The translations under genes were made by a program, and so were the position numbers. A DNA stretch of 62,991 bases, the filler included, from Rhabdomonas costata (Eukaryota), in the NCBI GenBank assembly GCA_019059605.1. It is 55 parts of 55 records of this genome, joined end to end, with 100 filler letters (N's around TTAATTAATTAA, not from the genome) between each part and the next. Parts side by side here need not be neighbours in the genome. Positions count along the whole stretch, not along the records: positions 44,737 to 45,783 come from JAHMHO010031498.1; positions 45,884 to 46,930 come from JAHMHO010031499.1; positions 47,031 to 48,078 come from JAHMHO010031500.1; 52 more parts are not named here. One strand, 5' to 3'. The notes under the pieces are model-generated. The model did no database searches, was not told the origin of the DNA, and was given only the letters and a program-made list of their open reading frames with translations. Of the stretch, positions 45,537 through 48,078 are shown one piece after another. The stretch's first letter is position 1. Every line of letters begins with the position of its first letter.

Positions 45537-47097
45537 TAGGCTTTAACGGGAGGTCCTGCAGTTGCATGGGATCCCGGATCTCGCTTTTGCTGCTGGCTGA
45601 GTCTGCTGTTGCCGTGAGGCAGGGCACAAGCTTCAGTGAGACCTGACGAAAACGGTGCTGCTGGGCGCGCCATTTTCGACTATGACAAAGAGTGAAGGGA
45701 AGAGCAGCCGCATCAGCTGCCCAAATAGATCACCGTCTCTCAGATGCCGTGTTTCGGTCATGCTGCGGAGTGGCTTATGTCAGNNNNNNNNNNNNNNNNN
45801 NNNNNNNNNNNNNNNNNNNNNNNNNNNTTAATTAATTAANNNNNNNNNNNNNNNNNNNNNNNNNNNNNNNNNNNNNNNNNNNNCATCGCCTTTTATTTTA
45901 AGTGTGTTTTCTCTCCGTCCCAGGGCCTGCATTGTCAGCGAGCATGGGCTAGGGACTGTGTACACATGTAGAAGGGGAGAAGGGTGGGGTACGTCTGGAG
46001 GCGGAGCGTGCGCTATCGGAAGTGCCCACAGTGCAGTCTCAGGTCAGGTACAGACTGCGCGCCACGGCAGTGCCCAGCAGAATACGGTATAGCCGTGCTT
46101 CTTCCACACACACATATTCACTTTGCTCTGCTTTGGGATGCCCCTGCTAGCTGGCTGGCGATTCGCCTCCATTGAAAACCCCTGCCTGCTGATCCCCTTG
46201 CTTGCCGATTTTTGTACAGCTCAGGACTGGGACTCACGGATCGCTTTGCACGGATTTCTGTTGGTGGGTGCGGTTCCAGTTCCCACCTGTTGGGCTAGCA
46301 TGCTTTGAATGCCGTTGTCGGAGGATCGTGGAGTATCTTGTGTTTCGCTACTTTTGTTGCAATTTGCCGCGAGAAGGTTAGATGTTTCCTGGTGTAGCTT
46401 TTCCTCCAGGATTTTTTCTAATCCTTCACTTGCCCAATATAACGGGGCAACGTGATGGGAACAAATCGTAGCATTCTTCCTCTGCGGTCGTGCCTCCGGA
46501 CCTGCCTCCCTGAGGACTGTATCCCTTCTTCAAGTGGTCTCATATAGGTCCGCTCCGGAGTTCTTTTTCCACGCTTGCTTCTGGGTCCCCTTTTGAAATG
46601 GTCGGTTCCAACCACTTGCCTTGTGAAAAGCCGATTTGGTAACTACGAAATCCGAACTCGCACGCGTTCTGCAAGATGGGTCGTAAGTGGCACGCGTGGC
46701 TGTTGAATGCTGCTCCGGACGCTGTTTTTTTCGATGGCAGTGGTGCTCCCAATACTGTGACTCTGGCAAAGATTCCGCGGATGATTTTCCCCTAGCTGCC
46801 GACACATGCCCGCATTCACCCTTCCACCCTGCCGGCCGGCAGGCTTTTCCGTCACACGCCCGCCCCCAACCGGCATATTCTGCCTGGTTTCTGTTTATCC
46901 TCCGGCAGTTTGTTTTCGGCCGGGCACCCCNNNNNNNNNNNNNNNNNNNNNNNNNNNNNNNNNNNNNNNNNNNNTTAATTAATTAANNNNNNNNNNNNNN
47001 NNNNNNNNNNNNNNNNNNNNNNNNNNNNNNTTTGTTTTGTTTTAACCTTCATTTTGTATAAATACAATAGAAAATTTTTTACCATTGTTATAGATTT

Positions 47098-47352
47098 TTA
47101 GTTGTTCCAACAACGACCACCGTTACAACAACCTTCACATCGTTTCATCATTTGATCAGTAAAGTAATTTTGATGGTAGGTCATTTGTACTTTTAATTCG
47201 TTAATCTCATACACTAGTTGATTTATTTTAATATTTGTGTTAAGATCATTTACAGAATTTAATTGTAACTGCATTAATTCTTGTTCTTTAGACGCAATCA
47301 TTATTTTTAGATTTTCGACTAAATCCATAGTAGTATAATAATCAAGGGACAT
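47098..47352 (-). CDS. Small AT-rich virus-like ORF (coiled coil, C-terminal CxxCCxxxxC)
   Basis: 84-aa intronless ORF; TCTA motif 13 nt upstream of ATG. Confidence 0.55.
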   Translation of the reverse strand: MSLDYYTTMDLVENLKIMIASKEQELMQLQLNSVNDLNTNIKINQLVYEINELKVQMTYHQNYFTDQMMKRCEGCCNGGRCWNN

Positions 47353-47428
47353 TCTATATTATCAATAGAGATTTTATTATTCCCTTAATAGGACACATTA
47401 TTAAAGTCAATATTATTTCAAAGTTCAT

Positions 47429-47800
47429 TTATACAATAGAACCTACACAAATTAAATTTCCATTTGTTCCATCTCCAACATATATAAATTCACGGCACAA
47501 CCACGACGTACTATATGTTTTTGTGGCAAGTCCTTCAATTTTATTATTACTCCCTTTACACAATACAATACTAGTATTACCCATTGCACCGTTTTTATCA
47601 ACTATACGGAATGTCTGACCATTTTATATACTCCAGACACTGAAAAGGGGAACGCTGTTAATAGAGCAAAAGATCCAACAAAAAAGACCGTATTTACATA
47701 ATCTGGTATTGGAGTGTTAGCATTATTTAAATCTGTAATCCTAAAGCCTTGTGTACCATAATTTGGCAGAGCACTATAATAAACTGATGTTTCGCACATG
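47429..47800 (-). pseudogene. Frameshifted viral fibre/baseplate-like gene 3' end
   Basis: After a frameshift near 47620 it reads GQTFRIVDKNGAMGNTSIVLCKGSNNKIEGLATKTYSTSWLCREFIYVGDGTNGN...*, resembling the G..(F/V).I.D..G......I......I.G......T......(L/F).Y.G beta domain of phage/virus fibre proteins. Confidence 0.45.
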
Positions 47801-47874
47801 CTCCGTCCCTCCACAGCACACCTCTTTCATACCCTAATTTTGTGTGTTCCGGAACCACGCTCCCTCACTCCCTC

Positions 47875-48078
47875 ATGTCTTCTGAGCCTGACCCACAGCG
47901 GAGGCGGACGGAGGAGGCACCCCCACGCTGGGCGCTTGAGCTCTCCGAGCAGGTGCGGCACCTGAGCGAGCGCGTTCAAGCGCTCAGCATTGCCTCGACG
48001 CAGCACCCCCCCACCGTGACGTATCCCACCCATGTCACGACCCAAGCTCTGACAGACCTGGCCAGTGACCCCCCCACA
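47875..48078 (+). CDS. GC-rich ORF start with coiled coil (host gene or gag-like)
   Basis: MSSEPDPQRRRTEEAPPRWALELSEQVRHLSERVQALS...; begins ~75 nt after the AT/GC junction. Confidence 0.35.

Follow-up and report, generated by a model that had tools for sequence, protein, structure and literature searches.

A decayed copy of a probable Maverick/Polinton-like virus, cut by a retrotransposon of the VIPER/Ngaro type, in the Rhabdomonas costata assembly

The window analysed here is a stretch of 62,991 nucleotides from the Rhabdomonas costata assembly GCA_019059605.1, a chain of unrelated contigs of ~1048 bp separated by spacers of N. One of them, the stand-alone 1048-bp contig at window positions 47031-48078 (G000:C31500; L001 among the loci numbered here), carries an AT-rich stretch that is probably the accessory-gene region of an endogenous Maverick/Polinton-like virus, in a dead copy lying in a host chromosome and cut by a retrotransposon; the virus would have colonized this host many times. 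A preliminary description of this DNA had proposed a virophage, a Polinton-like virus (PLV) or a giant virus of this host, possibly dependent on giant-virus transcription. Its assignment to a virus of the virophage/PLV type is borne out, in that the family is of the polinton-like supergroup, multi-copy, integrated, and linked to a polymerase and a probable rve integrase; the promoter argument fared less well, as set out below.

Virus remnant and retrotransposon on one contig

The GC content is 29% over the first 754 bp of the target contig, in agreement with the AT-rich character first noted, ~63% over the remainder and ~50% in most other contigs of the window. When the target contig was searched against its own genome at the DNA level (best 40 of 104 candidates scored), at least 23 other contigs matched the AT-rich part, at about 70-99% identity, and at least 16 matched the GC-rich part. 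Both sets of matches stop sharply at 47784, and hence two different repeat families meet on the target contig. Judged by its relatives in the assembly, the AT-rich stretch belongs to an endogenous virus family with many copies, of which it is a decayed one. In overlapping contigs the fibre gene is preceded by a small, divergently oriented Cys gene and followed by a coiled-coil gene and a gene of 84 amino acids (aa); a zinc-finger gene and then a 104-aa gene converge on the 84-aa gene from the opposite strand. This cassette is the variable accessory region of the element. The ratio of nonsynonymous to synonymous substitution rates (dN/dS) was 0-0.34 in the 16 measurable of 18 pairs of fibre, coiled-coil and 84-aa genes, two pairs being saturated, and shows that these multi-copy genes evolved under purifying selection. 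Individual values were 0.18-0.34 for the coiled-coil gene among four other copies, and 0.14 and 0.09 for the 84-aa gene where measurable. The target copy itself is dead.

The breakpoint of the fibre gene lies at a four-base core, AAAC. At this AAAC the gene runs on uninterrupted in eight other fibre copies; in a ninth copy the site is altered by a small deletion. The upstream part of a fibre gene was recovered in L035, joined exactly at AAAC to an end of the form B1-A2-spacer-B2. Counted with the core, repeat A1 of the target contig matches A2 of L035 in all 76 bases, and within L035 all 64 bases agree between B1 and B2; terminal repeats in the order A1...B1 A2 B2, the split-direct-repeat layout, are thus present. 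With both junctions found, these comparisons show the fibre gene to be cut by what is predicted to be a retrotransposon of the VIPER/Ngaro type. A long terminal repeat element was ruled out, the ends being split direct repeats without a separate duplication. In other copies the first open reading frame (ORF1) of the element leads on to a Cys/His knuckle, Cx2Cx3Hx4C, recognized by eye in L030, L033 and L174-L176 (a family match is absent), and from there to recombinase motifs. The HxxR box is present in L173 and L177, where the catalytic Tyr would lie past the contig end; the recombinase stretch reached an atlas score of 0.95 to a PF00589 (phage-integrase) cluster, and no solved structure matched the fragment.

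Across the genome, the left junctions of the retroelement have AAAC in 9 of 16 cases and the right junctions in 13 of 20, most of the remainder showing a near-match; many copies consist of a solo A-spacer-B unit. Solo repeats of this kind, about 205 bp long and with an AAAC-type core, were seen in host DNA in L094, L098, L099, L104, L106 and L118. Only one insertion into viral DNA (L001/L035) occurs among all these junctions. Nine further flanks of raised AT content resembled host DNA, and on this check a virus-targeting retroelement was ruled out. In another fibre copy (L009:~870-1067, G000:C30384) the interrupting DNA is GC-rich and similar to the N-terminal part of a CRE retrotransposon; its CRE identity is a lead only (pairwise E 4e-4), and tblastn found nothing.

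The retroelement family also adjoins host genes, for example an intron-split thiolase. This, together with the reciprocal junctions, places the viral copy in a host chromosome. The host genes examined, with introns and with mitochondrial carriers among them, are those of a eukaryote. Of 100 family contigs, 17 were picked out by a script for continuing into DNA with a GC content of 45% or more; six of these (L067, L068, L084, L092, L130 and L145) were set aside as carrying other viral genes or part of the viral repeat region, leaving 11 of 100 that run into host-like DNA, some of which may be assembly chimeras. Fold-back (inverted) joins in the short contigs L010, L018, L020, L058 and L133 suggest that chimeras of the assembly or artefacts of amplification are present. 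The target contig is direct evidence that at least one Polinton-like family in this assembly is integrated and is not a co-sampled virus.

Relative to L002 and L013, the fibre remnant carries a one-base frameshift near 47621. A deletion of ~40 bp between short direct repeats took the end of the gene, including its final codons, and the adjoining spacer, and a deletion of ~170 bp removed most of the 74-aa coiled-coil gene. Contigs from three of three sequencing runs span both deletion points without differences; all three runs derive from a single sample, possibly the one that was assembled, and are not independent. The initial identification of a fibre-like 3' end on the contig was therefore right as to the fibre, and incomplete as to the gene, which is frameshifted and cut at 47784/47785 by the GC-rich retroelement. 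In the same way, the co-oriented minus-strand cassette stands, with remnants of four genes in place of the three first counted, the coiled-coil stub having been overlooked; the 84-aa ORF is where it had been placed. The 84-aa protein had no Pfam match and no homologue in a word-based search of proteins of 46-147 aa, profile searches assigned no family to the coiled-coil protein, and no other contig among the scored matches covers the candidate start of the last ORF.

The longest view of the fibre came from L005, with 359 codons. Its N-terminal repeats match 2347 proteins, and the repeat region matches the tail-fibre family phrog_9729 (E 3.8e-6). The head region has one unnamed relative, P0025, 36% identical over 287 columns, and an atlas look-up with the fibre head returned unnamed viral clusters only; the structure model of the fibre was poor (pLDDT 41.9), and fold matches to phage fibres were therefore not counted. 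Matches of the ORFs to bacterial, phage or organellar genes had been named beforehand as the outcome that would speak against a eukaryotic virus. The resemblance to phage tail fibres does not overturn the virus reading, because phage-like fibres are usual in PLVs (PMC12220804; here and below, published work is cited from the portions of each source available to us). L145 and L006 contain, intermingled with fibre sequence, parts of a second gene that is fibre-like or capsid-associated.

Table 1. Features of the target contig, in window coordinates
Feature	Position	Strand	Remark
AT-rich remnant of endogenous virus, accessory-gene region	47031..47784	-	29% GC; family matches
Candidate start of another ORF, truncated at contig end	47031..47052	-	7 codons; alternative in-frame ATG at ~47085
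TCTA 15 nt before candidate start 47052	47068..47071	-	
Intact 84-aa ORF, coiled-coil-like, Cys-rich tail	47098..47352	-	68-93% amino-acid identity to four copies
TCTA 13 nt before 84-aa ORF	47366..47369	-	In 2/11 distinct upstream sequences of the 84-aa gene
Stub of ~74-aa coiled-coil gene, ~170-bp internal deletion	47377..47428	-	Whole gene in L013, L023
3' remnant of fibre gene, head region	47429..47784	-	94% identical to L002 open frame
Third TCTA (TCTATTG), 8 nt before coiled-coil gene start	47437..47440	-	Next to fibre end via ~40-bp deletion
AAAC crossover core, common to target and both retroelement ends	47781..47784	+	Uninterrupted site in other fibre copies
A1 split direct repeat, 5' end of predicted tyrosine-recombinase retrotransposon	47785..47856	+	Identical to A2 in L035
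Start of Gag-like ORF1 of retrotransposon, open to contig end	47875..48078	+	97% DNA identity to L008

Elsewhere in the window, the contig at 38998-40045 is also very AT-rich (20.7% GC) and looks viral, with an acidic-tailed ORF and a tandem duplication of ~140 bp; it was not among the matches in the searches made with the target contig.

Linkage of the cassette to a polymerase and a probable integrase

Two kinds of protein-primed polymerase are held in this genome, typified by L036 and L037. The L037 type matches PF03175 (E 3.2e-7) and is multi-copy, with at least 40 matches, several of them with stops (best 36 of 235 candidates scored); nearest to it are unnamed proteins from assemblies (61-83% identity), and the next relatives stand at 35-39%. 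Three joins tie the cassette to this polymerase. L076 has the zinc-finger gene joined to the polymerase N-terminal region (E 2e-15), L130 has the fibre joined to the polymerase, and in L152 the polymerase stop runs into a non-coding repeat region that is found upstream of the 104-aa gene in L067. Even if L076 and L130 were rearranged or chimeric, they would probably still indicate proximity of cassette and polymerase. In L160 the linked polymerase is followed by an rve-like start, only 41 codons long (pairwise E 8e-5 to an rve), which is probably the beginning of an rve integrase. It is because of the three polymerase joins and this probable rve after one polymerase copy that a Maverick/Polinton-like virus fits best. 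The search of the assembly for hallmark genes that had been proposed at the outset thus yielded a protein-primed family B polymerase and a probable rve, but no capsid or ATPase linked to the cassette.

The non-coding region between polymerase and cassette (L067:676-1478 and L152:856-1233) contains tandem repeats of ~33 bp arranged as inverted blocks, a palindrome, and runs of AGT/ACT, and is possibly an end of the element or an origin. An AGT/ACT terminal motif is typical of Polinton ends.

The second polymerase is followed by an rve integrase in open frames in L036/L059 (G000:C10922, C80350; Pfam rve, 6.7e-13). Small contigs overlapping L036 are 98-100% identical to it, this second element being apparently single-variant, and its named relatives are coral proteins at about 47%. 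No tie between this polymerase-rve element and the cassette was found in overlapping contigs. Scans of IMG/VR with the fibre, one polymerase and two alignments of the linked polymerase clade gave no relative; for the second polymerase type there were nine Maverick-like contigs, none of which shares cassette genes. A metagenome scan found at least one locus with the linked polymerase clade, the JGI contig Ga0118677_10049153 (L172), in which the polymerase is interrupted by a full-length retrotransposon ORF on the opposite strand. By its motifs this ORF looks CRE-like; its reverse transcriptase match was below the cut-off. The locus suggests that the linked polymerase clade is endogenous in another eukaryote too.

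TCTA elements and competing explanations

An AT-flanked TCTA is the late motif of mavirus and type-4 endogenous mavirus-like elements (EMALEs) and of Cafeteria roenbergensis virus (CroV) (PMC8547959; PMC5294985), and its occurrence before two starts had suggested giant-virus promoters on this contig. Both elements are real and lie at the positions first given; a third TCTATTG, before the coiled-coil gene start, had been overlooked. Three copies of TCTATTG in 754 bp were reached in none of 2000 approximate dinucleotide shuffles, for a motif chosen after being seen. TCTA alone was not enriched (7 seen, shuffle mean 3.5, with 11.6% of shuffles reaching even 6). Across the element, 4 of 12 gene families include at least one copy with TCTA 5-22 nt upstream of the ATG (0.075 expected per start); the anticipated enrichment upstream of related starts is found to that extent, but falls to one of nine families (fibre), with 0.7 expected, when the three window starts are left out. 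The motif is kept in 2 of 6 distinct upstream sequences of the fibre gene, 6 of 8 of the coiled-coil gene and 2 of 11 of the 84-aa gene. Homologous copies exchange it for TCTG or TCTC, or drop it, with their frames still under selection, and its spacing to the ATG varies from 6 to 15 nt. Common to all starts is a nearly GC-free run just before the ATG, which is likewise present in the Maverick-like contigs of IMG/VR.

A pattern search with TCTATTG gave 31 matches compared with 6 for the control, the excess consisting of copies of one gene start and the window itself, and one with TATTGTATA gave 26 compared with 3, adding fibre starts and one AT-rich endonuclease contig. The former brought no further viral gene family and the latter no capsid gene. 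The endonuclease contig (L189, G000:C27587) is AT-rich and encodes a GIY-YIG endonuclease with a TATTGTATA-type start; it has no DNA match to the virus family. In the available portions of PMC12945077 and bioRxiv 10.1101/2025.10.09.676808 there is nothing on TCTA in this clade. AT-flanked TCTA, by which a virophage might be known, is no general upstream motif of this element. With TCTA missing before 8 of 12 families and lost in homologous copies, the suggested reliance on giant-virus transcription through a mavirus/CroV-type TCTA gains no support in the form proposed, and we regard the giant-virus promoter reading as weakly supported.

Our preferred account is as follows. The virus would have inserted by means of its own integrase and have colonized this protist genome many times. 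The retroelement may then have entered as a circular molecule, its tyrosine recombinase making the crossover within AAAC and leaving one core at each end; as its paired repeats are still identical, this insertion is probably recent. The fibre would be an attachment protein at the capsid vertex. The upstream elements are best seen as putative start-proximal promoter or leader sequences with an AT-only core, a TAT(T/A)-rich run, in which TCTA is optional, and it is more likely that host or element-specific machinery reads them than that they form a strict late promoter of the CroV type.

A rather unlikely competitor is a mavirus-like virophage or a helper-dependent PLV, whose TCTA elements would be late promoters read by giant-virus machinery. 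The co-oriented genes on the fibre strand would then be late genes, with those on the opposite strand under another promoter. All TCTA-bearing starts of the element do lie on the fibre strand, a TCTA lies 7 nt before the rve gene of the second polymerase family, and two of the nine IMG/VR relatives are enriched in TCTA (L123 and L124, at 3 of 7 and 4 of 9 starts); a polymerase with an rve also fits mavirus, and the motif is that of the late promoters named above. The single TCTA-bearing family beyond the window starts, the copies that lack the motif, its variable spacing, the failure of the exact-motif search to bring in a further viral family and the lack of a linked virophage capsid all argue against it. 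A more elaborate version, in which multi-copy helper-dependent viruses of euglenids with an undescribed polymerase clade express late genes from CroV-type TCTA and carry an independently nested VIPER-like retrotransposon, we hold to be unlikely. If true, the helper-dependent reading would imply an undiscovered giant virus of euglenids.

It is improbable that the cassette is the accessory region of an integrated giant virus (Nucleocytoviricota), linked to the polymerase through chimeric contigs or nesting. The many small Cys-rich orphan genes and paralogues of the cassette would suit such a virus, giant endogenous elements are reported from Euglena gracilis (PMC12455990), and two of the three polymerase links could be chimeric. 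Against this, about 100 short family contigs examined had no giant-virus gene beside the cassette, three separate links lead to one polymerase family, and the copy number and the subfamilies at 70-97% identity parallel those of the polymerase. Contamination by a phage, a bacterium or a free virus, misassembled onto a host repeat, would explain fibre repeats that resemble phage tail fibres and might be expected in an assembly so fragmented and with fold-back joins. We consider it very improbable, in view of two contigs with reciprocal junctions at the same base and the retroelement's own AAAC core, the many decayed copies, a linked polymerase of eukaryotic Maverick-like type alongside a second one with coral relatives, and a fibre type that, as said, PLVs commonly have.

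Several observations weigh against the Maverick/Polinton-like account given here. L076 and L130 may be rearranged or chimeric. The candidate ends in L067 and L152 share only ~140-200 bp at 78-90%; no target-site duplication was seen, and true terminal inverted repeats could not be demonstrated. Capsid, penton, ATPase and protease genes were not found linked to the cassette, penton and protease not having been specifically searched for; the own-genome search for the Pox_A32 ATPase (PF04665) was empty, as an insensitive first look, and so was that for the capsid family PF21738, whose control matched nowhere either. TCTA in 4 of 12 families is still above background, at p of about 0.01 in a calculation that is circular. 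As to the retrotransposon, the recombinase reached only E 0.11 in Pfam and E 0.028 in PHROG, both below the cut-off, the RNase H-like motifs just before B1 in L108 were recognized by eye only, with no Pfam match, and no reverse transcriptase segment was recovered in the retroelement copies. Among contigs of the three sequencing runs, the frameshifted fibre allele was not seen, and the insertion junction was met in one contig with 26 letters on the short side, below our bar of 31.

Comparison with known systems

Endogenous PLVs of protists, and retrotransposons nested in them, are established (PMC10120064, Bellas et al., 2023; PMC12220804; bioRxiv 10.64898/2026.07.28.741278). The family described here is like the endogenous Maverick-Polintons and PLVs of those studies, including the PLVs of cryptophytes (PMC12220804), in being AT-rich, integrated and multi-copy and in having a protein-primed polymerase, a probable rve and a phage-like fibre. 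Known PLVs, like the target copy, are often interrupted by GC-rich retrotransposons, fibre genes included (PMC10120064; PMC12220804). Unlike theirs, the linked polymerase clade here has unnamed proteins as its closest relatives, and no capsid is linked. The virus is new as a lineage and as a host record, and of a kind already known from other protists. We found no paper on endogenous small DNA viruses of euglenids in the literature searched, and the supplement of PMC10120064 lists at least one euglenid capsid gene, in Euglena gracilis; in the sources available, such viruses appear to be barely reported in euglenids.

The insertion resembles the EMALEs of Cafeteria burkhardae that carry Ngaro retrotransposons (Hackl et al., 2021; PMC8547959), where an AT-rich virus likewise contains a GC-rich insert of the layout A1...B1 A2 B2 and solo AB repeats occur elsewhere in the genome. 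In contrast to Ngaro1 and Ngaro2a of Cafeteria, which show a preference for viruses, the element in this genome has a single viral insertion among the junctions counted above, and its recombinase directly follows Gag, whereas it comes last in the Cafeteria Ngaros. Unlike in EMALEs, TCTA is not general and no virophage capsid was found linked.

Closer, as judged by layout and motifs, are the kinetoplastid elements VIPER/SIRE and TATE (Ribeiro et al., 2019; PMC6681497). They share the A1...B1 A2 B2 ends, a Gag-like ORF with a Cys/His box, and a recombinase as the second ORF, the order here being Gag, recombinase and then RNase H-like motifs, and the solo A-spacer-B copies resemble SIRE. The element described here differs from VIPER/TATE in its shorter repeats (A of ~72 bp, B of ~64 bp), a knuckle one residue shorter (Cx2Cx3Hx4C) and its AAAC core. 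If the host assignment holds, a recombinase retrotransposon of the VIPER/SIRE kind, with AAAC as its crossover core, would be present outside the kinetoplastids.

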